From Gammaproteobacteria bacterium (GTDB lineage Bacteria > Pseudomonadota > Gammaproteobacteria > JACCXJ01): a stretch of DNA of 64,000 nucleotides. The position numbers and the translations under genes are program-made. Positions 4,160 to 41,015 of the stretch are shown piece after piece (position 1 is the stretch's first letter; each line of letters begins with the position of its first letter). Under the pieces are notes generated by a model that was given only the letters and a program-made list of their open reading frames with translations, was not told the origin of the DNA and ran no database searches. The stretch is from positions 3,307 to 67,306 of the forward strand of contig JBOIDR010000002.1 in assembly GCA_050740695.1 (NCBI GenBank), given 5' to 3'.

Positions 4160-6046
4160 ATGCGTTGCCTGTTACGCGCCGTCGTCCGGAGGAGTCGAGG
4201 TGTCGTCTCCCATCAGGACCGAGGGTTCGAAGGCGAGCATCTCACCATCGGGCGGTCGACGGACCAGGACCTGGAGCTTCCGGACCTGCGCGTGGCCCTG
4301 CACCATGCCACGGTGGTCGCGGCGGGCGCCGGCCGTTTCGTGATCCAGTCGGCGGTGCCCTCCGGGATCCGTCACAACGACGAGCCCGTCCAATCCGCCT
4401 TCCTGGAAGTGGGCGATCAGGTGAGCATCGGCGATCACCGCATCACCGTGCGGCCTCCGGAGGGCGCTCATGAGCTCTGCCTGGAGATCGCGCAGGTGCG
4501 TGCCGATCCCGGCCAGGAGGTCGAGAAGCGCGTCGCGTCGGCCTCGGGCAGCGGCCCGGAAAAGGGCCTGCGCCTGGGCGTGCGCGGCTGGTCCTGGATC
4601 CTCGGCATGGCGATCCTCACGCTGTTCTTCGTCGTGCCGCTCGTCGCTCGCCAGTCGGAGGCGATCCAGGGGTTCCTGCGCGGGGTCATCCCTGGCGTGA
4701 GCGATCACGCGTGGAGCACCGGGGGGCTCACGGAGGGCCATCGGTATTTCGGCGACGACTGCAACAAGTGCCACGAACGGGCCTTCGTCTCGGTACGCGC
4801 GAGCGCCTGCGTCGAATGCCACAAGGACCAGCCGCATCACTTCGATGTCGAGCGTTTCAAGGTCCCGGCCCTCGCCGACAAGCAATGCGCCGCTTGCCAT
4901 AAAGAGCACGGCGGGGCGCCGGCCCTGACCCGGCAGGACGAGGGCCTGTGTCTCGACTGCCACCGCGATATGCAGGAGACGGCGGCGGATTCGAAGCTCC
5001 TGGACATCCGCGGGGGCTTCGCGGAGGACCACCCGGAGTTTCGCGCCACCTTCGTCACCCACACGGACGGAAAAGACCGGTCCGAGCGCATCGAAATCGA
5101 CCGGCGCATTGTCCCGAAGGAGCGCTCCAACCTGTTCTTCCCCCACAAGACCCATCTCGACAAGACCGGGGTCCAGGGGCCCGATGGCAAGGTGGTGCTG
5201 AGCTGCGCGAGCTGCCACGTCCCCGAACCAGGGGGACGGCTTATGGCGCCCATCCGCTTCGAGCAGCATTGCCATCGCTGCCACCAGCTCACCTTTGAGA
5301 TCGACGATCCGAAGCGCGAGGTGCCTCACGGCCATGTCGGTCGGGTGCTCGACGGCCTCGAGGCCTATTACGGCCTGCGTACCCTGGAACGGGCCGATAT
5401 CGATACCGGCGAGCCGGAGGTCCTGTCCCGGCGCCGCCCCGGGCGGCAGGCGGTCCCGCCGGAGCGCTCCGAGGGCCTGGAGAGTGCGGCGCGGCGGGCG
5501 CGGCAAGCGGGCAAGGAGCTTTTCGAGTATCGCGCCTGCGCGACCTGCCACCAGGTCGATGAGAAGGCCCAATCGGTCTTCGGGTGGGACATCGTGCCGG
5601 TGCGCATCGCCCGCACCTGGTACCCCAAGGCCGGCTTCGACCACGGCCGGCACGCCACGGTGGCCTGCGCGCGCTGCCATGGCTTCCGACCCGCCGATTG
5701 CGCCGCCTCTACATCGCCCCCCTCTACATCAAGTAGGGCGGTGGCGGATCCCGAGAAGGGCGCGGCCGATTGCAACAAGGGCGTGGCCGATTCCGAGAAG
5801 AGCGAGGATGTCCTCATCACCGGTATCGCGACCTGCCGGGAGTGCCATGGCGATCCCGGGGCAAAGGATCGGGTTCAGTCGACCTGCATCTTCTGCCACG
5901 ATTTCCATATCTCGCCGAGGTTCGCGATGGATGGCCGGGCGCGGACCAGACCGGGCGACCTAGCCCCCCCTCGGCAGGCGGCGGCGGTGCCGTCGGCCGA
6001 TCTCACGGATCTCCCGGCCGGCCAGGCGCGGATGGGGCAGCAGTGA
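4160..6046 (+). CDS. FHA-domain protein fused, through one TM helix, to a decaheme c-type cytochrome.
   Basis: The N-terminal roughly 110 aa match the FHA fold pattern (GRSTDQDLELPDLRVALHHATVV...DEPV...FLEVGDQVSIGDHRITV). There is one hydrophobic helix (WSWILGMAILTLFFVVPLVA). Ten CxxCH motifs follow: CNKCH, CVECH, CAACH, CLDCH, CASCH, CHRCH, CATCH, CARCH, CRECH, CIFCH. Confidence 0.65.
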   Translation: MRCLLRAVVRRSRGVVSHQDRGFEGEHLTIGRSTDQDLELPDLRVALHHATVVAAGAGRFVIQSAVPSGIRHNDEPVQSAFLEVGDQVSIGDHRITVRPPEGAHELCLEIAQVRADPGQEVEKRVASASGSGPEKGLRLGVRGWSWILGMAILTLFFVVPLVARQSEAIQGFLRGVIPGVSDHAWSTGGLTEGHRYFGDDCNKCHERAFVSVRASACVECHKDQPHHFDVERFKVPALADKQCAACHKEHGGAPALTRQDEGLCLDCHRDMQETAADSKLLDIRGGFAEDHPEFRATFVTHTDGKDRSERIEIDRRIVPKERSNLFFPHKTHLDKTGVQGPDGKVVLSCASCHVPEPGGRLMAPIRFEQHCHRCHQLTFEIDDPKREVPHGHVGRVLDGLEAYYGLRTLERADIDTGEPEVLSRRRPGRQAVPPERSEGLESAARRARQAGKELFEYRACATCHQVDEKAQSVFGWDIVPVRIARTWYPKAGFDHGRHATVACARCHGFRPADCAASTSPPSTSSRAVADPEKGAADCNKGVADSEKSEDVLITGIATCRECHGDPGAKDRVQSTCIFCHDFHISPRFAMDGRARTRPGDLAPPRQAAAVPSADLTDLPAGQARMGQQ

Positions 6047-29664: not shown

Positions 29665-30757
29665 CGGGGCCGGGTATCGCCCGCTGGGGTATCAAAACCG
29701 ACCAGCGTCCGGAACAGATAGCCCGTGACCGAGACAAAATCGAGCCCGAGCCTCCCGATGAGCCGTTGCAGGCCCTCCAGGAGCGACTGGCCGCGCAGGG
29801 CGATGCGCTCGATGACCCCGTGATCGCGAAGGTGCCGGATGCAGGCGATCGAGGCGGCGAGCGACAGGGTCTCGCCCCCGAAGGTGGTAAAAAAAACACG
29901 TCCTTTTCGAGGAGCGACATCACGTCCCGTCGCCCGGTCACGGCCGAGATCGGCATGCCGTTGGCCATGGCCTTGGAGAACAGCGACAGGTCCGAGCGTA
30001 CCCCCAGGAACGCCTGGGCCCCGCCGAGGGCAGAGCGGAAACCGGTCCACATCTCGTCGAAGATGAGAAGCGCGCCGTCGCGATCGCAGAGCCGCCGCAG
30101 CTCCGCGAGAAAACCGTTCTGCTCGCGCTCGAAGGTGAAGGGCTCCAGGATCACGCAGGCGGTGTCTGTATCGAGCGCCGAGAGCACCGAATCGATGTCG
30201 TTGTAGCGGAAGGTGGCGGTCAGCTCGGCGGTCGCGGCCGGGATGCCGGCGGCCCGATCGGTCACGGCGATGTACCAGTCGTGCCAGCCATGATAACCGC
30301 AGCACAGCACCCGCTCGCGCCCGGTGTAGGCGCGCGCCAGTCGCACCGCGGCGCTCGTCGCGTCGCAGCCGGTCTTCGAAAAACGCACGGATTCGGCATG
30401 GGGAACGACCTCGCGCAAGAGCTCCGCGAGCTCGACCTCCAGGGGGTGCATGAGCGAGAAGGTGATCGCGTCTTCGAGCTGGCGGCGGATGGCCTCGTCC
30501 ACCACCGGGTGGCAATAGCCCAGGATGATGGGACCGATGCCCATGTTGAAATCGAGGAACTCGTTGCCATCCACGTCCCACACCCGCGCGCCGCTACCGC
30601 GCGCGAGGTACTTGGGCGCCACGCCCCGGGAGAACTGCGTGGGTCCCTTGGCGAGCGTCTGGGTGCCCGCCGGGACGAGTCCTTGCGCCCGCGCCCAGAG
30701 AGCGTCCGAGCGCTCGATGCAGGGCAGTTGGGGGTTGGATTGGACTCGGTTCGGCAT
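29665..30757 (-). pseudogene. Second, diverged copy of the class III aminotransferase gene. It has one frameshift in an A8 homopolymer near 29890 and is 3'-truncated.
   Basis: About 93% identity to 21625..22718. The frame switches after ...LLEKDVFF. Similarity ends at GFDTPAGDTRP. It is followed by a 60-bp piece identical to the SDR gene's 3' region (20822..20885). Confidence 0.65.
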
Positions 30758-30766
30758 GCGCTCTCC

Positions 30767-31675
30767 TCAGAGACGTTCGAGCCGGGCCAGGACCTTGCGC
30801 GCCAAGGCCTCCGGCGTGTAGCCCTCGTGCGCCAGGAGCGCCGGGTAGAGCGCCGGTTTGAACCAGCGGTCGGGGAGCGACAGGCACAGTGTTTCGGCCG
30901 TGACCCCGGCCTCGAGGAGGGTCTCGGCCAGGATGGAGTACAGGCCGCCGGTCTTGAAGTGGTCCTCGACGACCACCAGAAGCCGGCAGCAATGGGCCAG
31001 GCCGACGAGGAGATCCCGGTCCACCGGCTTCAAGGTGCGGAGGTTCACGAGCCCGACCGACAGGCCGTTTTTTCGCAAGCGCTCGGCCGCCTGGTGACAC
31101 TCCGAGAACAGCACCCCATAGGCCAAGAACGTCGCGTCCCGGCCCTCGGCCAGCACCTCGGCACGGCCGGGGGCGAAGTCGGGGGTGTGGGTGACCACCG
31201 GGCCCTGGGCGTTATAGCGGATGTAATACGGTGCGGGATCGAGGAGCACCGTATCGAGCCCGATCAGCAAATCGTCGAGGTCCGCGGGACAGAAGACCTT
31301 CATGTTGGGGATGCCGCGCATGAGCGCCACGTCTTCGATGGCTTGATGGGTCGGGCCGTTGGCCTCCGAGACGAAGCCCGGGAAGCTCCCCACAAGCTTG
31401 ACGGGCAGGCACGGGATACCGACATCGGTGCGGATGAACTCGAAGGCCCGGAGCGTCAGGAAGGCCGCGAGCGCGTGGATGACCGGGATGCGGCCGCGCA
31501 GCGCCAGTCCCGCCGCCATTCCGACCATGGTTTGCTCGGCGATCCCGACATCGATGAAGCGCGCTCCCAGCCGCTCGGGCAGTGTCCGGATCGCGGCCCG
31601 GTTCTCGGCCGTCATGGCGATGAGCCGCTCGTCCTGTTTGGCGAGACGGTAAAGGGCGTCTTCGTAACTTGTCAA
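30767..31675 (-). CDS. Transketolase C-terminal subunit of a split transketolase.
   Basis: A 302-aa match to the transketolase pyrimidine-binding/C-terminal section (IAEQTMVGMAAGLALRG...). Confidence 0.8.
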   Translation of the reverse strand: MTSYEDALYRLAKQDERLIAMTAENRAAIRTLPERLGARFIDVGIAEQTMVGMAAGLALRGRIPVIHALAAFLTLRAFEFIRTDVGIPCLPVKLVGSFPGFVSEANGPTHQAIEDVALMRGIPNMKVFCPADLDDLLIGLDTVLLDPAPYYIRYNAQGPVVTHTPDFAPGRAEVLAEGRDATFLAYGVLFSECHQAAERLRKNGLSVGLVNLRTLKPVDRDLLVGLAHCCRLLVVVEDHFKTGGLYSILAETLLEAGVTAETLCLSLPDRWFKPALYPALLAHEGYTPEALARKVLARLERL

Positions 31676-31761
31676 CTACCGTTTCCCTTTGGGCTATTGG
31701 AGTCTGCTCGGGCTTACCCGCAGCCGAGCAACTTGGGCCGCAGGCTTTCGTTGACCCGTAT

Positions 31762-32469
31762 CTATTTAGCTTTCGCTTCTACTATATGATCGAATGCTGT
31801 TTTGTAGATTATTATTCTACCAAACACGTCGGAGCTTAACCCGAAGTCTTCGACACGTATCTCCTGGTCCTGCGCCGGATCCCAGAAATCGACGACTATG
31901 AGCAGCCAATAAGCATCACAATTAGTATACTCTTTAACCTTGTTCTCTTTAGTCCTTATGATATCCGACAGCCTTTGAATGGACATCATAGGTACAGTGT
32001 AGACATTATAAGCCCTCCACTTGGGATCGCTATACAGTTTTGTATTCACATATAGGTAGTCCAGTTCAGGGAGGTCCTTGTATACGTGTCTGAATACCGT
32101 ACCTGCATCCAACGCCTCAACCCGTTTTGCCAATTCAACGAGTTTCTTCACAAACTTATTCGTTTGTCCGATCGGCTTTTCCAAATTGAACCCAACAGAT
32201 ATCTCGATCGGCTTTCCCCCTTGATCCACGAACTGTCGTTGCGCTTCTTGCAGAACGTCTTGTCGAATTTTGTCTTGCTTCTGCTCGTTGTCCGCGATCG
32301 CTCCATCCTGCAAAAAGAACCGGGTTACTTCTATGCCGATTTTTCTTTGCCCTTCGATTATCACATCCGGCTTGTCGCCATGCTTGACCTCTCCCTCCGG
32401 AAGGGCATACGCTCCGCGGAATCGTTCGAAGTAGTATCGTTCAATTTCTTGATTGGACATTGACCTCAA
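31762..32469 (-). CDS. Low-GC hypothetical protein (235 aa) inserted between the two transketolase subunit genes. Possibly nuclease-like.
   Basis: GC is about 42%. N-terminal GDKPDVIIEGQRKIGIEVTRF is reminiscent of a PD-(D/E)xK core (weak). No other match. Confidence 0.45.
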   Translation of the reverse strand: MRSMSNQEIERYYFERFRGAYALPEGEVKHGDKPDVIIEGQRKIGIEVTRFFLQDGAIADNEQKQDKIRQDVLQEAQRQFVDQGGKPIEISVGFNLEKPIGQTNKFVKKLVELAKRVEALDAGTVFRHVYKDLPELDYLYVNTKLYSDPKWRAYNVYTVPMMSIQRLSDIIRTKENKVKEYTNCDAYWLLIVVDFWDPAQDQEIRVEDFGLSSDVFGRIIIYKTAFDHIVEAKAK

Positions 32470-32534
32470 TCCTGTCGAGCTAAAGCGAACTTGATGTTCG
32501 ACGGACCCGTGGACTCATTCCTGAAAATAGCACG

Positions 32535-33392
32535 CTACCGCGCGACGATGGTCTCGCTCGCGAGCACGGCCTCACGGGTCCCCTCCAGTTCCTCCAAAAG
32601 CATCTCGACCTCCCCGGAGGTGAAGTTGCAGAACCAACGGTCGGCGCGGGCCGTCAGGCTCGGCAGGCCCTGGCCGCGCACGGTGTCCGCGATGACGGCG
32701 CTTGGCCGGCCCAGGGCGATCGGGATGCGCGCCAGGCCGCGTTCGATAGAATCGAAGTCATGACCGTCGATGCGCAAGGCCGCCCAGCCGAAGGCATGGA
32801 ACTTCTCTTCGAGGGGTTCGAGCGGGATTAGGTCCTCGGTCGCGACGTTGGCCTGAAAGCCGTTGCGGTCTACGATGCAAACGAGGTGGTCCATCCCCTT
32901 GGCGGCCGCGACCAGGGCCGCCTCCCACACCGATCCCTCGTTCAGCTCCCCGTCGCCGAGGACCACCACCACGCGGTTCGGGCCGCCGCAAAGCCTCACG
33001 TCGAGCGCGATGCCGAGGCCCACCGAAAGCAGGTGGCCGAGCGAGCCGGAATGGAACTCTACGCCCGGAATATTACGGTTCGGATGCCAGTAGATGTCGT
33101 CGCCGGGCGCGAGGTGTCGTGCGAGGCGTGCGGGATCGAGGACCCCAAGCTCGGCTAATAGCCCGTACAACGCGGGGACATCGTGTCCCTTGGAGAGCAA
33201 GAGGTAATCACGCTCGGGGTCCTCTAGCCGCGCCGCATCGAATCTGAGCCAGCGGGCATAGAGATACGTCAAGAGATCCACGCACGACAGCGAGGCCCCG
33301 ATGAAACAACCCCCGCGGGTCGCCATGCGGACGATATGGCCGCGCACGCGATGGGCGAGCGCTTGGAGATCTTTTTCGTCCTCTGGAGTCAT
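32535..33392 (-). CDS. Transketolase N-terminal (TPP-binding) subunit.
   Basis: MTPEDEKDLQALAHRVRGHIVRMATRGGCFIGASLSCVDLLTYLY...LSKGHDVPALY is typical of the split transketolase N subunit. Confidence 0.8.
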   Translation of the reverse strand: MTPEDEKDLQALAHRVRGHIVRMATRGGCFIGASLSCVDLLTYLYARWLRFDAARLEDPERDYLLLSKGHDVPALYGLLAELGVLDPARLARHLAPGDDIYWHPNRNIPGVEFHSGSLGHLLSVGLGIALDVRLCGGPNRVVVVLGDGELNEGSVWEAALVAAAKGMDHLVCIVDRNGFQANVATEDLIPLEPLEEKFHAFGWAALRIDGHDFDSIERGLARIPIALGRPSAVIADTVRGQGLPSLTARADRWFCNFTSGEVEMLLEELEGTREAVLASETIVAR

Positions 33393-34240
33393 AGGGACGG
33401 GACGGCGCGCGTCTCCGCCGCGCCGATGGTGCGGAGCCGATGCAGGTGATGGCGATACCAGTTGACACCGGCGTACTTCGCATTGATCGCCGCAAGCCCC
33501 GGGCGGCGGTCCAAGAGGTCCAGGATGTCGTAGAGACCGAAGGCGGGATCGGCGGGATACAGGGCCTCGTACACCCGCCGGATGAATTCATAGTCCTCGG
33601 GATAGTCGATGGTCCAGCGGTGCGACATCGAATAGTTCCTGCCGGGGCGGCCGTCGGTCCGCTCCTCCCACGCGACGTTACTCAACGGGAAACACAAGGG
33701 CCGCTCCCAGATGAAGGGCGTCGTGTGCTCGCGCTCGAAATCCAACCGGGCCTCGCGAAAGGCGCATTCCAAGACCTCGACCGACATGAGCTCGGCGTCG
33801 TTGCCATCCGGGAAAGAGGCGGGGTGCAGGTTGCTCGTGTAATCGCTGTCTCCTTCCGCGAAGCGTGCGAAGACCGCGTCAATGACCGCCGGATCGACGA
33901 GCGGGCAGTCGGATGGCACCTTGGCGAGCACCTCCGCGCCGTAGCGGCGCGCGACCTTGAGGTGACGGTCGAGGAGATCGGTCGGGTGCCCCCGAAAGAC
34001 CTCGATCCCTGCCGCCCGGCACACCGAGACGAGCCCATCGTCGGCGGGATCGGTCGTCGTGGCCACCACGATCCGCCCCGGGGTCTTCATGCGCGCCACG
34101 CGCTCGACCATGCGCACGATGAGCGGTTCGCCGGCGAGGTCCATCAAGACCTTGCCCGGCAGGCGGGTCGAGCCCAGCCGTGCCTGCACGACCACGAGTG
34201 ATTCAGCCCCGCTCACGGGCCCCCCTCCCTCCCCTGCCAT
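33389..34240 (-). CDS. Acylneuraminate cytidylyltransferase family protein (SpsF/CMP-sugar synthetase-like).
   Basis: VVVQARLGSTRLPGKVL...VVATTTD is the cytidylyltransferase N-terminal signature. Its stop overlaps the tktN start (ATGA). Confidence 0.75.
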   Translation of the reverse strand: MAGEGGGPVSGAESLVVVQARLGSTRLPGKVLMDLAGEPLIVRMVERVARMKTPGRIVVATTTDPADDGLVSVCRAAGIEVFRGHPTDLLDRHLKVARRYGAEVLAKVPSDCPLVDPAVIDAVFARFAEGDSDYTSNLHPASFPDGNDAELMSVEVLECAFREARLDFEREHTTPFIWERPLCFPLSNVAWEERTDGRPGRNYSMSHRWTIDYPEDYEFIRRVYEALYPADPAFGLYDILDLLDRRPGLAAINAKYAGVNWYRHHLHRLRTIGAAETRAVPSL

Positions 34241-34443
34241 CGTCTTTCGCCCACCGCTCCCGCACCACCCGGATCATACACCGGGCAATGTGGGCGGACC
34301 TGAGCTCTGGCTGAGATCGTGCCGCCTCTCGTCGGCCGAGTGCGGGCAGCGCCTCGTCGCACTCGGCCTCGATACCCCTTCCCGATCGTGCCGATGAAGC
34401 GATTAACGTTCATAATCGCTTCATCGTTTGGAGCGAATAAGGC

Positions 34444-35856
34444 ATGCAAACGTCTCGGGTGTGGATCTGGCAACAATCTGATTGGCCGCCGATGAAGATC
34501 AAAGGGTTCCGCTGGGATCAAGGGGCGCTGGCCCCTTGGCTTTCGCGTGCGCGGCTGGCTCAGGGCAAGGTGCTGGGTGCCACACAGTGGCTCGATCCCA
34601 ACCTGACGTTGGAAGCCGTGGCCGTCATCCTGGTCGAGGATGGGGTTACAACGAGCGCGATCGAGGGCGACCTGTTGGATCTGGACGCGGTTCGGTCGTC
34701 GGTTGCTCGCCATCTCGGCTTGCCTACCGCCGGTCTGCCCGCACCACCGCGCGCCGTTGATGGCTTGATTTCAATATGAAGGGTTCAAACCCCCGCCTTT
34801 CAGGCGGGCAGATTTCATCTGCAGCCATGAGCGGGCATGGTAGCATAGTCTGATTGAAGAAGGGGATCCGATGGACGGCAGCCATACGGTAGTCAAGATT
34901 GAATGCCACTTTGTCTGGGTAACGAAGTATCGCTACCAAATCCTGAAGGGAGAGGTGGAGCCGTAGACGCGTCGTTCAGTCGACGCGTATCCGGACTTTC
35001 AGTCCGTAACTCAAACCCACCGGCTTTTAGCCGGTGGTTGTTTAGTGAGGTGCTGCTCGATGCCACCCGTGACCTCGGTTCGCCCCTGACCGCTAAGCGC
35101 CTCTGCGGCTGGCAGGCATCCCTGTTCCCCACAGGCTACTCGGGTCTGCACCAGATCCGAACCGGCGCACTACGGGGTGATGAGCCGATGCAGGTCATCT
35201 CCGGGCGCATCGGCCATGAGCGCGTTCATTTCACCGCACCACCGCGTGAGGGGCTGGACCTGGAACTGGATCGCTTTCTGGCGTGGTTCAATGCATCCCC
35301 GACCGATTTGGATGGACTGATCCGCGCAGGTCTCGCGCACCTGTGGTTCGTGACGCTTCACCCTTTTGAAGACGGCAACGGCCGACTGGCCCGCGCCATC
35401 ACCGACAGAGCCTTGTCGCAGGACGAGCACCGGCCGATGCGGTTTTTCAGCCTGTCTGCACAGATCCTGCGCGAGCGAGAGGGCTACTACAACATCCTCG
35501 AACACACTCAAGGTGGCAGCGTCGATGTCACGGACTGGCTGGCGTGGTTCCTGGTGCAAGTCGAGGCCTCGGCCACGGCGGCGGAAAAGACTGTCGACAC
35601 CACGCTGGCAAAGGCGAGATTCTGGCTGCGTCACCAGGCTGCGGATCTCAACGAGCGCCAGCGCAAGGTGCTCAACCGGCTGCTCGACGCAGGCCGGGAC
35701 GGCTTCGAAGGCGGGATCAACACCCGCAAGTACATGAGCCTGACCAAGACCAGTCGCGCCACAGCCTACCGTGAGATCGCTCTACTGATCGAGAAGGGCT
35801 GCCTCACGCCGACCGGCAAGGGCGGACGGAGTAGCGGCTACGAGATCGTTTGGTGA
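34444..35856 (+). pseudogene. Fic/Doc-family (AMPylation) gene, split by an approximately 260-bp insertion.
   Basis: The N part (34444..34779) has the TSAIEG motif. The C part (about 35040..35856) has the Fic motif HPFEDGNGRLAR. The two parts are in different frames, separated by the inserted element. Confidence 0.6.
34785..35045. mobile_element. IS200/IS605-derived miniature element. It carries a TnpA N-terminal remnant and is flanked by similar hairpins.
   Basis: An internal ORF encodes MDGSHTVVKIECHFVWVTKYRYQILKGEV, the HUH Y1 TnpA N-terminus. Flanking hairpins are TCAAACCCCCGCC-TTTCA-GGCGGG and TCAAACCCACCGGC-TTTTA-GCCGGTGG. Confidence 0.5.
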
Positions 35857-35898
35857 TCCAGAATCTTACAAACTCCGAAGACCGCACCAGCGAGTGTT

Positions 35899-37803
35899 AT
35901 GATAACCGCTCAGTCCGTGGGGCGGGTGACTTTCAGGAGCCGAACCCTGTCGATGACCGGCCCGGCACCCGGGTATGCCGACCCGCATCTGCGACGAACG
36001 AGCGCCAATCCGCTCTTTAAGAGCGCTAGAGCGCGTTTGCCGCATGACCCGATTCCCATGACTTCGTACCGCCGTCTTCCGCGATCATCGGGGCTGCCAG
36101 GTCCGCCGGAACCGACCGGCCTTTTCGAAGGGGATGCCTCTCCCGAAGAGGTGGTCGTCGCCTACCACGAGCGCACCAAGCACCACTTCCATCGGTTTGC
36201 GGCCGCGCTCGGGTACATGGATTGGGCTACACAACCCGATCCGTTTCGGCGTTACGCGGGAGCGCCCGTCGTGCGTCTCCCCCTGCCCCGAGCGGGCCGC
36301 CTGCTTCCCTACAGGCAGCTCTATGCCAGCGGGACGGTAGCGCCGGAGCCGCTGTCGCTGGAGTCGGTGTCGCTGTTCTTCCGCTACGCCCTGTCGCTCA
36401 CGGCGTGGAAGCGATTCGGCGATACCTCGTGGTCCTTGCGCGCCAACCCCTCGAGCGGGAACCTTCATCCGACCGAGGGCTATGCCGTTCTGCCCCCGAT
36501 CGAGGGGCTCGGCGATACGGCCGCGGTGTACCACTATGCCCCGGCGGCACACGCCCTCGAGCGGCGGGCGGTTCTCGACACAGAGCGATCGGCCGAGCTC
36601 TTCGCGCCCTTCCCGGAAGCGGCCTTCCTCGTCGGTCTGTCGTCCGTGCCTTGGCGGGAGGCCTGGAAGTACGGCGAGCGCGCCTTCCGGTACTGCCAGC
36701 ACGATGTCGGGCACGCGCTCTGCAGCCTGCGCATCGCGGCAGCCGCGCTCGGTTGGAGATTGGTGCTCCTCGATGGCGTCGGCGATGATACCCTCGCGAG
36801 CCTCCTCGGACTCAGCCGCGATGAGGATTTCAGGGAGGCAGAGCGGGAGGAACCGGAACTCCTCGCCCTGGTCGCGCCGGCGCTGTCATCAAGGGTTCCA
36901 CACGGCTTGAGCCAGGGGAGTATGGACGGCGTGCTCTGGCAGGGCCGGGCCAATAGGCTGAGCCCCGAGCACGCGGTCGAGTGGCCCGTGATCGCCGAGG
37001 TCACGCGGGCCACGCGAGGCTTCGATGCGTCGATCACGGAAGACTGGTCCAGGTTCCCCGGAGAGGGATCCCTCATCGAGACACCGGTCCACCAGGGTCT
37101 ACTCACCGCCGAGCAGGCGATCCTCGGGCGCCGCAGCGCGGTGGCGATGGATGGCTCGACCGCGATCTCACAGGGCACATTTTTCCGCATGCTCGCCCGC
37201 TTGATCCCGACACGCGAGCCGCGAGCCATGCCCTGGGATGCGATCCCGTGGCGGCCGCGCATCCATCTCGGGCTCTTCGTCCACCGCGTGGACGGCCTGT
37301 CCCCGGGCCTTTACGCGCTACCCCGGGCTCCGGACAAGATCGAGGTTCTCAAGGACGTGATGCATCCAGGATTTCGTTGGCGGCGCGTGGCCGCTGGTCC
37401 CCCCGGGCTCCCCCTGTATCTCTTGCAGGAAGGCGACTGTCGTGCGCTGGCGGCCAGGGTCTCCTGCGGCCAGGACATCGCCGGCGATGGGGCGTTCAGC
37501 CTCGGAATGATCGCCGACTACCGCGACAGCCTGACGACCTATGGCGCGGCGTTCTACCGGAATCTCTTCTGGGAGGCCGGCATGGTGGGGCAGGTGCTCT
37601 ACCTCGAGGCCGAAGAGGCGGGCATTCGGTCCACCGGGATCGGCTGTTACTTCGACGATCCGGTCCACGAGGTCTTCGGGATCGACTCGATGGAGTGGCA
37701 GAGCTTCTACCACTTCACGGTGGGTGGCCCAGTAGAGGACCCGCGCCTGACGACGCTGTCCGCGTACGGCCCGGCGCTCCCGGGCAGGGGCCAGGAGACG
37801 TGA
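35899..37803 (+). CDS. Nitroreductase-superfamily (SagB/ThcOx-type dehydrogenase-like) protein with two nitroreductase-like domains. Start uncertain.
   Basis: HERTKHHF...RANPSSGNLHPTEGY resembles the SagB family. The C-terminal domain is ...GAAFYRNLFWEAGMVGQVLYLEAEEAGIRSTGIGCYFDD. Confidence 0.55.
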   Translation: MITAQSVGRVTFRSRTLSMTGPAPGYADPHLRRTSANPLFKSARARLPHDPIPMTSYRRLPRSSGLPGPPEPTGLFEGDASPEEVVVAYHERTKHHFHRFAAALGYMDWATQPDPFRRYAGAPVVRLPLPRAGRLLPYRQLYASGTVAPEPLSLESVSLFFRYALSLTAWKRFGDTSWSLRANPSSGNLHPTEGYAVLPPIEGLGDTAAVYHYAPAAHALERRAVLDTERSAELFAPFPEAAFLVGLSSVPWREAWKYGERAFRYCQHDVGHALCSLRIAAAALGWRLVLLDGVGDDTLASLLGLSRDEDFREAEREEPELLALVAPALSSRVPHGLSQGSMDGVLWQGRANRLSPEHAVEWPVIAEVTRATRGFDASITEDWSRFPGEGSLIETPVHQGLLTAEQAILGRRSAVAMDGSTAISQGTFFRMLARLIPTREPRAMPWDAIPWRPRIHLGLFVHRVDGLSPGLYALPRAPDKIEVLKDVMHPGFRWRRVAAGPPGLPLYLLQEGDCRALAARVSCGQDIAGDGAFSLGMIADYRDSLTTYGAAFYRNLFWEAGMVGQVLYLEAEEAGIRSTGIGCYFDDPVHEVFGIDSMEWQSFYHFTVGGPVEDPRLTTLSAYGPALPGRGQET

Positions 37804-38831
37804 GTCCTTCGGTCGCGGCAGGCCATTGACGAGGCCCTATCCGGTCGGGCGCGCATAGAGCCGCGCCCTTGGCGACAAGCAGAAGCATCGGATAATGCAA
37901 CTTTGAATTCGGCACAAAATGCTCCGCCCGAAACTGCCGTTCTGAAAGTAAGGCGGGCATTCCTCAATTCGCTTCTGCTTGTTCTATTGCCGCCGCCGTC
38001 ACCCCATCCACCCCACTGGCCGCGTCCTAGTTGAGGTCGAGCCAGCACGCCAATAGGGAATCGACGTTCAGGCAACCGGTAGAAGTCTCTGAAACGATGT
38101 CGCTTGTCGGCTTTCGCCTTGTTGGCTATCCCCCGCAGCAAGGTTGACTCCGCTCTATCCGGTCCAACACTGTCCGGGCTGAGTTGCCTTTGCGGGCTGC
38201 GTACTTCTGTCAAGTCCTTCCCCCTGTGTCCGGCTTTCCCGGACGCCGAGTACTACGCTTGATAAGACTCCCCATCGGTATCTGGCAGGCTTTCCGTTTC
38301 ACGGTACTCCTCCGCCTACCCGCACAGCACCAAGACCCCATCCGACAGCACCTGCCACTGGACGCAAAGGGATATCCACGATGGAACCGAAAGAAACTTG
38401 CCACGCCCCCTTCGCCGCTGCAACTGCGGAACGTAGACGTTGAGGTACATCCGATCGATGCCCTCGATCTCCAAGCTCACATGTTCTCGAAGGACTTCCA
38501 CGACGCTCTGTGGTATGCTCCTATATCGGCTCCGGTTCGACTCCGATCCAACGGATCGATCGCCGCCTCGGCGGCCTACATCAGTGGCAAGAACTGCTTG
38601 CAGTTCTTCCGTCGACCGGAGCCTCTCCTCCTATTATGCAGCACCGGTCGATCCCACGACATACACCTCGGCCTTTACCACAATCATGAATCGCATCGTG
38701 TTGTCCTCCTGGTTTCGGCCTTTAGTAGGTGTTTGTCTGGATCCGGGATTCCGGGCGGTCTCGACCGGACGCACGCTTTCCGACCCCTCGAACCTCTCCG
38801 GCGCCTTGGCCTCCGCGTCGCGGGCATTAAA

Positions 38832-39197
38832 TCAATCCGGCAGGCCCGCGATCTCTATCACCGGCCGGATCTCGACGGTCCCCTTGCGCGCCATGGGGAT
38901 CCGTGCGGCGATGCCGATCGCCTCGTCGAGATCCCGAGCGTCGATCAGGAAGTAGCCGCCCAGTTGCTCGCGCGTCTCGGCGAACAGACCGTCGGTCACG
39001 AACCGTTTACCGCCCCGCACCCGGACGCTGGTCGCCGTCGATGTCGGGTGCAACGGGTTGGCGGCCAGGTACTGCCCGCTCGCTTTCATCTCTTGTGCGA
39101 GCCGCGTGGACTCCACGTAACACTCTTCCCGTTCGGTCTCGCTCAACGCCAGCTCGTCTAGGTAAATCAACAACATGTATTTCATGTGTGCCTCCAA
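38832..39197 (-). CDS. YciI-like (DGPF domain) protein.
   Basis: MKYMLLIY...GGYFLIDARDLDEAIGIAARIP is the YciI family pattern. Confidence 0.6.
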   Translation of the reverse strand: MEAHMKYMLLIYLDELALSETEREECYVESTRLAQEMKASGQYLAANPLHPTSTATSVRVRGGKRFVTDGLFAETREQLGGYFLIDARDLDEAIGIAARIPMARKGTVEIRPVIEIAGLPD

Positions 39198-39226
39198 CGC
39201 TCAGTCGAATGGCGGGCCCGGATCGA

Positions 39227-39619
39227 CTACCGCGGGGTATCCGCCGCGACAACCCCGAGCGCGCGCAGCGTCCGTGCGTCCTCCGCGATCGGCCGCACCT
39301 CGACACACCCGATCCGTGCCCCCGGGATCCTCGAGGCCACCTGGATCGCCTCGTTCAGATCCCCGGCCTCGATGATGTAATAACCGCCCAGCTGTTCTTT
39401 GGTTTCGGCGTAGGGCCCGTCGGTGGTCGAGAGCTTGCCCTTTCGCACCCGCACCGTGGTCGCGGCATGGGGAGGCAACAAGCGGTTGCAGCCGATGAAG
39501 TGGCCGCTTTTCCTGATACCTTCGGTGAACTCGCTGTACTCCTCGTAGTGCTTCTCCGCATCGGCCTCCGACATCTGCTCCATCAGGGTCTCGGCACAGA
39601 TCAGGCACAGGTATTTCAT
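39227..39619 (-). CDS. YciI-like (DGPF domain) protein, paralog of the gene at 38832..39197.
   Basis: MKYLCLICAE...GGYYIIEAGDLNEAIQVASRIP. Confidence 0.6.
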   Translation of the reverse strand: MKYLCLICAETLMEQMSEADAEKHYEEYSEFTEGIRKSGHFIGCNRLLPPHAATTVRVRKGKLSTTDGPYAETKEQLGGYYIIEAGDLNEAIQVASRIPGARIGCVEVRPIAEDARTLRALGVVAADTPR

Positions 39620-39722
39620 CGCGCTCTCTTTAATTTGATTGTAGACACCTATGGTCGTTTGGCGGAGCCCCGATTCGACACGCCACGATAGGACCGATCG
39701 TCGTAACGCAGCCGCTGGCGTA

Positions 39723-41015
39723 TCATTCCGCCAGCTCTCTCAGCCGGCGCTCGAGAAACCGTTGCTCCGGCTCCTGCTTCGTGAGGCCGAGGGCGCGTTC
39801 GTAGGAGGTTCGGGCTTCGGTCGTCCTGCCCAACCGCCGGCACAGCTCCGCCCGCGCCGAGTGCGCCAGGTGGTAGTCCGCAAGATCGCCGCGCGCGAGG
39901 ATGGCGTCGATAAGGGCAAGACCCGCCAAAGGGCCGTCGCGCATCGCCACCGCCACGGCGCGGTTCAACTCGACCACGGGTGACGGATCGGCCCGCGCCA
40001 GCAGGTCGTAAAATCCGACGATCTGGGCCCAGTCCGTGGCGGCGGCGTCGGGCGCCTGGGCATGCACCGCCGCGATCGCCGCCTGGAGCGTGTAGGGGTC
40101 GAACCGCCGCGACGACAGCGCCAGCTCCGCCAGCGCCAGCCCCTCGGCGATCTGATCCCGGTTCCAGAGTGAGCGATCCTGGTCCGCCAGCAGGACTAGC
40201 TCGCCCGCGGACGAGCTGCGCGCGGCGCGCCGCGATTCCTGCAGCAGCATCAGCGCGAGGAGTCCAAGCGTCTCGGGCTCCGGTACCAATTCGATCAGCA
40301 ATCTTCCTAAGCGGATCGCCTCGCCCGAGAGATCGTGTCGCGTCAGCGACGCACCGGACGACGCGGAGTAGCCTTCGTTGAACACGAGGTAAACCACGCG
40401 CAGCACGCTGTCCAATCGATCCGGCAGATCGGCCACCGACGGCACCTGATAGGGAATGCGCGCGTCCCGGATCTTGGCCTTGGCGCGAACGATACGCTGG
40501 GCGAGCGTGGGCGCAGCGCTCAGGAACGCTCGCGCGATCTCCTCGGTCGTGAGGCCACACACCTCGCGCAAGGTCAGCGCTACCTGGGCCTCCGGGGGCA
40601 GGGCTGGATGGCAGCAGGTGAAGATCAGCCGCAGTCGGTCATCTTCGACACCCTCGTCGTCCCACGCGACGGCGTCTTCGGTGGCAGGATCGACGGGTTC
40701 GGCATCATCGTCCAGCGTGTCGAAGCGGGCACGGCGTCGCAGGGTGTCGATGGCCTTGAAACGGCCGGCCGAAATGAGCCACGCGCGGGGATTCGCGGGC
40801 ACCCCATCCCGCGGCCATTGCTCCACCGCTGCTCTAAAAGCGTCGTGCAGCGCTTCCTCGGCGAGGTCGAAGTCGCCGAGCAGGCGTATCAGGGTAGCGA
40901 GGACGCGGCGCGAGTCGGAGCGGTAGACGGCGTCTACCGTCTCGCGCACACGCAGGACGGCGTCCTCGCTCATTGGCGGAGCGCTCGAGACCACTGAGGT
41001 TGAGCTCCACGACAC
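39723..41015 (-). CDS. ECF-type RNA polymerase sigma-70 factor with a long C-terminal TPR-like extension.
   Basis: Sigma2 region (RVLATLIRLLGDFDLAEEALHDAF), sigma4 region (LREVCGLTTEEIARAF), and about 230 aa of extra C-terminal helix-rich sequence. It is co-directional with the two yciI-like genes. Confidence 0.7.
   Translation of the reverse strand: MSWSSTSVVSSAPPMSEDAVLRVRETVDAVYRSDSRRVLATLIRLLGDFDLAEEALHDAFRAAVEQWPRDGVPANPRAWLISAGRFKAIDTLRRRARFDTLDDDAEPVDPATEDAVAWDDEGVEDDRLRLIFTCCHPALPPEAQVALTLREVCGLTTEEIARAFLSAAPTLAQRIVRAKAKIRDARIPYQVPSVADLPDRLDSVLRVVYLVFNEGYSASSGASLTRHDLSGEAIRLGRLLIELVPEPETLGLLALMLLQESRRAARSSSAGELVLLADQDRSLWNRDQIAEGLALAELALSSRRFDPYTLQAAIAAVHAQAPDAAATDWAQIVGFYDLLARADPSPVVELNRAVAVAMRDGPLAGLALIDAILARGDLADYHLAHSARAELCRRLGRTTEARTSYERALGLTKQEPEQRFLERRLRELAE

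Follow-up and report, generated by a model that had tools for sequence, protein, structure and literature searches.

A class II-type Fic gene interrupted by a 276-bp non-autonomous derivative of IS200/IS605 elements

A Fic (AMPylase) gene in the 64-kb stretch of gammaproteobacterial DNA analysed here (hereafter, the window, to which all positions refer) is interrupted by a cleanly inserted element of 276 bp. The reading that we regard as very probable is that this insert is a deletion-derived mini element, presumably mobilised in trans, which inserted directly after a TTGAT pentanucleotide and left fic most likely non-functional. The features on which this reading is built, all on the forward strand, are collected in Table 1.

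Table 1. Features of the interrupted Fic gene and of the inserted element
Feature	Position	Strand	Evidence or remark
Whole interrupted Fic (AMPylase) gene	34444-35856	+	insert at 34770-35045
Fic 5' part, DUF4172 domain	34444-34769	+	Pfam DUF4172 E=4.4e-24; ortholog alignments
Fic 3' part	35046-35856	+	Pfam Fic PF02661 E=1.3e-11; ortholog alignment
Target or transposon-adjacent motif TTGAT	34765-34769	+	element immediately 3'; L005 empty site
Insert, 276-bp non-autonomous IS200-group element	34770-35045	+	DNA alignment to L005; relatives
Left end	34770-34830	+	DNA fold; identical 27-mer at 12 genome loci; guide/target covariation
Left-end guide TTCAAACC	34784-34791	+	covarying C at 34786
Left-end subterminal hairpin CCCGCCT-TTC-AGGCGGG	34792-34808	+	DNA fold
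Second small left-end hairpin	34809-34823	+	DNA fold
tnpA remnant ORF, 31 codons, MDGSHTVVKIECHFVWVTKYRYQILKGEVEP	34871-34966	+	Pfam Y1_Tnp positions 2-25 of 121
Right end, three hairpins	34964-35045	+	DNA fold; 97.8-98.8% identity to full-length right ends
Right-end hairpins	34967-34988, 34992-35006, main 35017-35037	+	DNA fold
Right-end guide-like segment CTCAAACC	35010-35017	+	
Terminal motif TTTAG	35041-35045	+	

Judged by its sequence, the host gene is a Fic AMPylase gene of the class II type, and AMP-transferase activity is predicted for its product. Class II enzymes are defined by an inhibitory motif, (S/T)xxxE(G/N), located N-terminal to the catalytic core within a single polypeptide (PMC3667792). 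We found such a motif, TSAIEG, at 34651-34668 (codons 70-75), as the preliminary description of this DNA had noted, and it is invariant in a protein alignment of 12 orthologs. The catalytic motif HPFEDGNGRLAR, of the form HxFx(D/E)GNGRxxR, lies at 35359-35394 within the Pfam Fic domain and is followed by a C-terminal winged-helix-like region in the 3' part. The domain order (DUF4172, Fic core, C-terminal winged helix), the TSAIEG motif and the catalytic motif are shared with class II AMPylases such as SoFic (PDB 3EQX) and the closest solved relative, the Fic family protein 8cil_A, which the rejoined protein matches with E=5.7e-118. Unlike these relatives, the gene in the window is interrupted after codon 108, and its product carries, close to the N-terminus, five inserted residues, PMKIK, that are unique to it.

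The two parts of the gene belong together. The 5' part, starting with the ATG at 34444, comprises codons 1-108 and two nucleotides of codon 109, and the 3' part runs from the last nucleotide of that codon to the stop in the same frame. Searched against a protein collection, the rejoined sequence retrieved thousands of full-length DUF4172-Fic proteins, mostly of 373 aa; the top match has 92% identity at 100% query coverage, and single 373-aa orthologs align end to end with 92-93% identity. All 12 of the intact orthologs that were aligned read ...AVDGLIEVLLDAT... / ...PPRAVDGLIEVLLDAT... across the break, and the gene is intact in the closest relatives. The NCBI annotation treats the halves as separate genes, one encoding a DUF4172 domain protein (MGH8562649.1) and the other a Fic protein of 268 aa beginning at the GTG at 35050 (MGH8562650.1). 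The public record is corrected accordingly: what it lists as two adjacent 'genes' is a single gene, split by a mobile element that the annotation does not show.

The insertion site was defined at the DNA level with the best ortholog, P0001, encoded on an 18.6-kb contig of assembly GCA_974558475.1 (locus L005). This locus is syntenic with the window, with a CTP_transf_3 gene on the opposite strand upstream and a nitroreductase-like gene downstream, and the flanks align with about 95% identity on either side of one gap, 276 bp long. In L005 the unoccupied site has GGCTTGAT directly followed by TGAGGTG, or, in the form compared here, GATGGCTTGAT joined to TGAGGTGCTG; in the window, GATGGCTTGAT is followed by the element, TTCAATATG...GGTTGTTTAG, and then by TGAGGTGCTG, without target duplication and without loss of a base. 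With the element removed, the joint in fic would read GGCTTGATTGAGGTG. The preliminary description had proposed a Fic frame that is interrupted by about 260 bp and then resumes; the interruption and resumption hold, and the length is corrected to 276 bp by the L005 alignment together with the 12 protein orthologs. It had also suggested aligning the halves to an intact ortholog, and both do match single 373-aa orthologs as well as the syntenic locus. T34770 and T35046 being identical, the insert can be placed in two ways that differ by 1 nt; relatives of the element favour a left junction immediately after TTGAT, which spans codons 108-109 of fic, and a right junction immediately after ...GTTTAG. 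The G+C content of the element is 52.5%, as against 64.2% in the window. An exact look-up of a neighbouring 283-aa protein returned nothing on record.

Since the window comes from a metagenome-assembled genome and repeats are known to break assemblies, we considered whether the contig might be mis-joined through a repeat, with fic uninterrupted in the cells. A Logan contig from an independent assembly, SRR27067773 (L020), bears on this in two ways: it breaks off 22 nt into the left end, as is typical of a repeat, and it contains the same junction between fic and the left end as the window. Both junctions, moreover, match the L005 empty site to the base and keep the frame, and the insertion obeys the TTGAT rule of the family. 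An artefact of this kind is thus hardly credible, and we proceed with a genuine insertion.

The open reading frame within the insert points to its origin. As had been noted previously, it is an N-terminal remnant of a Y1 transposase (TnpA), which is borne out by a match to Pfam Y1_Tnp (positions 2-25 of 121, E=3.4e-5); the remnant has 31 codons and not 30, as it consists of 29 N-terminal tnpA codons and, in frame, the last two codons, EP, with the native stop. Codons 30-140, including the HUH and tyrosine regions, are deleted, so the element cannot transpose alone and is a non-autonomous derivative. The deletion junction falls within GTGGAG at 34955-34960, a sequence that resembles both breakpoints in full-length copies and so points to a microhomology deletion. 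A separate loss of 9 bp has removed the YRY codons that follow MD.

Full-length relatives were traced in several collections. Among plasmids, a blastn search with the insert found annotated IS200/IS605 tnpA genes in Azotobacter chroococcum, Methylomagnum ishizawai and Pseudomonas aeruginosa, the matches being split into two pieces that lie about 330 bp further apart than in the window; it also found the 80-nt right end in several other genera, with 84-92% identity. In a three-way alignment, the window element consists of the left end, the tnpA start, a large internal gap and the right end. An exact search of representative genomes with a 27-mer from the left end identified 12 loci, 10 of them in Thiorhodococcus drewsii AZ1 and one each in MAGs of Candidatus Contendobacter and Candidatus Competibacter. 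The complete T. drewsii copies are 616 bp long, have right ends 98.8% identical to that of the window element, and encode a TnpA of 142-143 aa that ends in ...FRVEP. Metagenomic full-length elements encoding protein P0146 (L039-L047) have the left end in common with the window element as far as ...GCAGCCATGAGC, and over the last 93 nt their identity to it is 97.8%; over the 5' untranslated region and the remnant, even the closest full-length elements reach only about 79%. The search for an exact full-length parent found none, the 5' untranslated region being diverged from every full-length copy found.

IS200-group elements carry only tnpA and are typically about 600-700 bp long. Taken together, the comparisons show that the insert is an internally deleted copy of an approximately 616-bp, tnpA-only element of this group. 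It shares with the T. drewsii copies the identical left-end 27-mer, the nearly identical right end, the same hairpins, the TTGAT flank, the terminal TTTAG, and a remnant homologous to both the N- and the C-terminus of TnpA, and related copies reside on the Azotobacter, Methylomagnum and Pseudomonas plasmids; it differs in the missing codons and the diverged 5' untranslated region. Regarding non-coding RNA, a permissive Rfam scan of 34000-36400 recovered no RNA family in the element, and a tRNA-like T-arm, prompted by the motif GGTTCAAACC, was dismissed after ARAGORN predicted no tRNA in 30000-40000.

Further copies of the element exist. In assembly GCA_975254505.1, exact matches to the 31-aa remnant lie at two places and a variant with one changed residue lies at a third, and these three mini copies have the same deletion junction and about 99% identity to the window element. 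They lie at unrelated loci: one next to a gene for a HEAT-repeat protein (L018), one among genes for a glycosyl hydrolase, a YkuD protein and a methyltransferase (L019), and one beside MdoG and 2OG-Fe(II) oxygenase genes (L021). The mini copies are 275-277 bp long, and the only differences are in how long a G-run is, in a deletion of 1 nt and in three substitutions; each of the three sits directly after TTGAT and is itself followed by T. Because the junction GAGGTGGAGCCGTAG, the 9-bp YRY loss and the 5' region are common to all four loci, which have their own TTGAT flanks, the deletion preceded the insertions, and the element has moved as a mini element.

This distribution also bears on a different history, namely, that a full-length insertion sequence entered fic and decayed in place, so that the 276-bp segment was never mobile as such. 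Deleted or frameshifted copies of this family do arise independently, as exemplified by one relative with another deletion (L012) and one with a frameshifted tnpA (L015). However, the same junction, codon loss and 5' region at three unrelated loci next to separate TTGAT targets contradict decay in place, and the flanks of these loci show that segmental duplication of the fic locus does not account for them either. We consider this history highly improbable and retain the mobile mini element.

We infer that mobilisation occurred in trans. No other copy of either end or of the whole element was detected elsewhere in the window, and a tblastn search of the window with full-length TnpA yielded only the remnant; the three database TnpA relatives that were traced all come from assemblies other than the MAGs with mini elements. 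Given that no autonomous tnpA was found among these, a trans-acting transposase is assumed. Exact searches of JGI metagenomes with the deletion junction and with the mini-specific 5' region gave zero hits. IS200/IS605 elements show a lagging-strand bias; in the window, GC skew tracks the direction of the genes and gave no indication of the replication strand.

The most plausible sequence of events starts with a tnpA-only element of about 616 bp that lost some 340 bp of its transposase gene through an in-frame deletion between the short repeats GTGG and GTGGAG. The 276-bp product retains both ends with their subterminal hairpins, guide segments and cleavage motifs and, unable to make TnpA, presumably moved with the help of a Y1 (HUH) transposase supplied in trans by a full-length relative. 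In this single-strand 'peel and paste' pathway, the top strand leaves as an excised circle and is inserted again on the 3' side of a pentanucleotide able to pair with the guide of the left end, TTGAT for this element. One such event placed a copy after the TTGAT at codons 108-109 of the class II Fic gene.

The consequences for fic follow from the gene structure. The N-terminal open reading frame continues into the insert and ends at a TGA at 34777-34779, 8 nt into the element, to give 111 aa (108 native residues plus ISI); the C-terminal part is open from the GTG at 35050 (268 aa) or from an ATG at 34903 inside the element (317 aa). TSAIEG and the catalytic motif are now on separate open reading frames, with the split between the auto-inhibitory helix and the catalytic core. 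Sequence inspection revealed no convincing ribosome-binding site before the GTG or the ATG, no sigma-70-like promoter was found in 34300-35300, and the terminator-like hairpin of the right end lies just upstream of the catalytic half. On these grounds the interrupted fic is most likely a null allele. The insertion looks recent because both halves are otherwise undamaged and the copies are about 99% identical. Excision within the IS200/IS605 family is seamless (PMC8612924, PMC3201880), so that precise loss of the element could, in principle, restore fic.

The position of the break, precisely between the inhibitory motif and the Fic core, could also be read as a functional split, either into a two-part, class I-like Fic toxin/antitoxin pair, made up of the N-terminal fragment with the inhibitory helix and the C-terminal fragment with the catalytic core, or into a reversible on/off switch for fic. 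In Fic proteins, AMPylation is de-repressed, with toxic effect, when the inhibitory helix is removed or mutated (PMC3667792); in a two-part arrangement, the catalytic fragment would be freed of its intramolecular brake. The intact frame of two halves free of other lesions and the seamless excision known for the family would fit as well. The presence of TTGAT, however, simply explains the site, and a functional split is further at odds with the lack of expression signals described above, with the intact gene in the closest relatives, and with the near-identity of the copies, which suggests a recent, unselected event. Nothing but the break position speaks for such a split, which we deem very unlikely; a null allele is the preferred reading.

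The ends of the element have the architecture expected of the IS200/IS605 family. The preliminary description had pointed to two similar flanking hairpins, each preceded by a common motif, and this was confirmed: the octamer TCAAACCC occurs at 34785 and 35011, in both cases directly 5' of a hairpin. With three matches in the window against 1.2 expected, the octamer alone is statistically unremarkable; what gives it weight is where it lies and that related elements conserve it. Both ends, for which folding had been suggested, are more stable than shuffled sequence when folded as single strands of DNA (z=-3.3 for the left end and z=-7.8 for the right end). Full-length relatives from many genomes retain the hairpins, with compensatory changes. 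Neither of the outcomes that the preliminary description had named as refuting it, Fic halves that fail to align to one ortholog or a unique element lacking hairpin conservation, was thus observed. The arms of the left-end hairpin co-vary by lineage (CCCGCCT/AGGCGGG, ACCGGCT/AGCCGGT, CCCGGCT/AGCCGGG and ACCAGC/GCTGGT); in the main right-end hairpin, all eight pairs are kept in a nine-sequence alignment, with one G-C pair replaced by A-U through changes on both sides; and in the first right-end hairpin, GACGCGTC/GACGCGT becomes, by eye, GACGGGTC/GACCCGT in L012 and L015. The main right-end hairpin with its T-run, TTGTTTAG, has a terminator-like score on both strands.

The subterminal hairpins at both ends lie on the same (+) strand, and the termini of the element are not inverted repeats. 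Having neither terminal inverted repeats nor a target duplication, the element is not a classical MITE, and the earlier label of a PATE/MITE-like IS200/IS605 derivative holds in its first half; 'MITE-like' is apt only in the sense of miniature and non-autonomous. REP sequences with RAYTs are extragenic palindromes of about 20-40 nt that occur in high copy number together with a domesticated Y1 gene and have no distinct left and right ends. This label was likewise set aside, given that the element is 276 bp long and intragenic, has distinct left and right ends collinear with the full-length insertion sequence, and retains a tnpA remnant. The accurate designation is a PATE-type IS200/IS605 derivative. 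PATEs are minimal non-autonomous derivatives of this family, described, for example, in Haloquadratum walsbyi and Geobacillus stearothermophilus (PMC3119063, PMC10055086). Like them, the window element is short, non-autonomous and multicopy, keeps only IS200/IS605-type ends with subterminal hairpins, adjoins its target motif without duplication, and presumably depends on TnpA supplied in trans. Unlike them, it retains a 31-codon in-frame tnpA remnant and derives from a tnpA-only element through a single internal deletion that is still legible, and a co-resident transposase was not found among those traced. It thereby illustrates how PATE-like elements can originate, by a single in-frame microhomology deletion. 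The element and its insertion leave the current understanding of such elements unchanged; their value is in annotation and illustration.

The choice of target can be followed across the family. We pooled left ends from genomes, plasmids, contigs of a viral collection and metagenome contigs, with one entry per distinct flank (n=35). The guide TTCAAACC was found after TTGAT in 21 cases and after CTGAT in one; TTGAAACC after TTCAT (6), GTCAT (1) and TCCAT (1); and TTAAAACC after TTTAT (5). The variable guide base is complementary to position 3 of the flank in 35 of 35 entries (C:G in 22 of 22, G:C in 8 of 8 and A:T in 5 of 5), where most of the C-guide cases come from a few insertion sequence lineages, each representing a separate insertion. 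One left end (L037) is nearly identical to that of the window element, including the CCCGCCT hairpin, except for an A guide, and it sits after TTTAT; another, with the hairpin CCCGGCT, has a G guide (L022). The guide switch has thus occurred on different hairpin backgrounds. Two further copies with the guide TTTAAGCC follow TTAAC and TTGAC, with a T:A pair and a G-T wobble, respectively, at position 3. These two cases, from one lineage, hint at a second covariation, between flank position 5 (C for T) and the guide base that lies 3 nt to the 3' side of the first (G for A). Guide and target could form four antiparallel Watson-Crick pairs, TTGA with TCAA. For the right-end guide-like segment, no consistent simple pairing rule with the terminal motif (TTTAG or TTGAG) emerged.

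The matching of guide and flank represents the DNA-guided selection of targets already known for TnpA of the IS200/IS605 family. In IS608 of Helicobacter pylori, guide bases located 5' of the hairpin foot recognise the cleavage sites by canonical as well as non-canonical pairing (PMC3201880), and the target can be reprogrammed by changing the guide (PMC5934647); in Geobacillus, guide and adjacent motif covary naturally, and PATE-like minimal elements are present (PMC10055086). The matching described here agrees with these experiments and adds no new principle. It provides a clean natural example in which one guide base differs and the matching pentanucleotide adjoins, the three well-sampled guide bases being in agreement in every case.

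The architecture differs from that of IS608 in several dimensions: the target is the tetranucleotide TTAC in IS608 and the pentanucleotide TTGAT here, the distance from target to hairpin foot is 19 nt versus 22 nt, and that from the right hairpin to the cleavage site is 10 nt versus 8 nt. ISDra2 of Deinococcus radiodurans (PMC8612924) shares the TTGAT target, insertion 3' of it without duplication, and single-strand peel-and-paste transposition with seamless excision; unlike the window element, it carries tnpB and a guide RNA and is much longer, and the relationship was compared at the level of the family-wide Pfam match. The window element ends in the terminal motif TTTAG, which deviates from the target TTGAT in its third and fifth bases, and in the Geobacillus elements the terminal motif likewise differs from the target motif (PMC10055086).

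The IS200-group family to which the 276-bp mini element interrupting fic belongs seems prone to yielding miniature derivatives. On a Candidatus Contendobacter contig, an element of about 385 bp is likewise an internal-deletion derivative of this family, with breakpoints that differ from those of the mini element, making it a second, independent deletion derivative, and it also lies 3' of TTGAT. The copy in Candidatus Competibacter is full-length, with tnpA frameshifted past codon 16, and is a decayed autonomous element. In Thiorhodococcus drewsii AZ1, a right end directly abuts a left end (GGTGGTTGTTTAG followed by TTCGATATCTAG), a joint that represents either two tandem copies or the assembled circle junction of a transposition intermediate.

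Features of the split fic gene and of related elements at other loci
Locus	Position	Feature
Window	34444-35856	fic gene, + strand
Window	34490-34504	15-bp in-frame insertion in fic
Window	34964-35045	80-nt right end of the mini element
Window	35046	base directly 3' of the right end
L012, Candidatus Contendobacter MAG	- strand	deletion derivative
L015, Candidatus Competibacter MAG	~1900-2350	full-length copy
L016, T. drewsii AZ1, NZ_AFWT01000047.1	~5510-5570	right end/left end joint
L048	~1400-1450	left end with variant guide
L049	~40-90	left end with variant guide

The right end of the mini element matches plasmids of Pseudomonas, Paraburkholderia, Polaromonas, Nitrosospira, Deinococcus, Providencia and Proteus (H4-H13) at 84-92% identity, and the tnpA coding sequence is less conserved than this right end. 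One Paraburkholderia locus (L003) contains only a 3' fragment of tnpA and the right end; it has no left end. The base directly 3' of the right end is T in approximately 17 of 19 distinct copies, and several copies continue as TGA; this T may reflect a target preference additional to the pentanucleotide or, alternatively, an element boundary placed one base off.

Two left ends, in L048 and L049, carry the guide TTTAAGCC and are located 3' of TTAAC and TTGAC. Position 5 of the flank is C where the guide carries G, not A, which suggests a second covarying guide/flank pair, seen in only two copies, both from one lineage. A G.T wobble occurs at flank position 3 in one of these two copies.

In the NCBI record of the MAG, the halves of fic are annotated as separate proteins, a 111 aa 'DUF4172 domain-containing protein' (MGH8562649.1) for the 5' half and a 268 aa 'Fic family protein' (MGH8562650.1) for the 3' half; no pseudogene or mobile-element feature was seen across the gene in the record data examined. 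The 5' half additionally contains an insertion that adds the residues PMKIK to the Fic N-terminus and has no counterpart in the syntenic ortholog L005 or in any of the 12 orthologs aligned. GCCGATGAAG occurs about 100 bp upstream and again within this insertion, which also includes ATCAA, the reverse complement of TTGAT.
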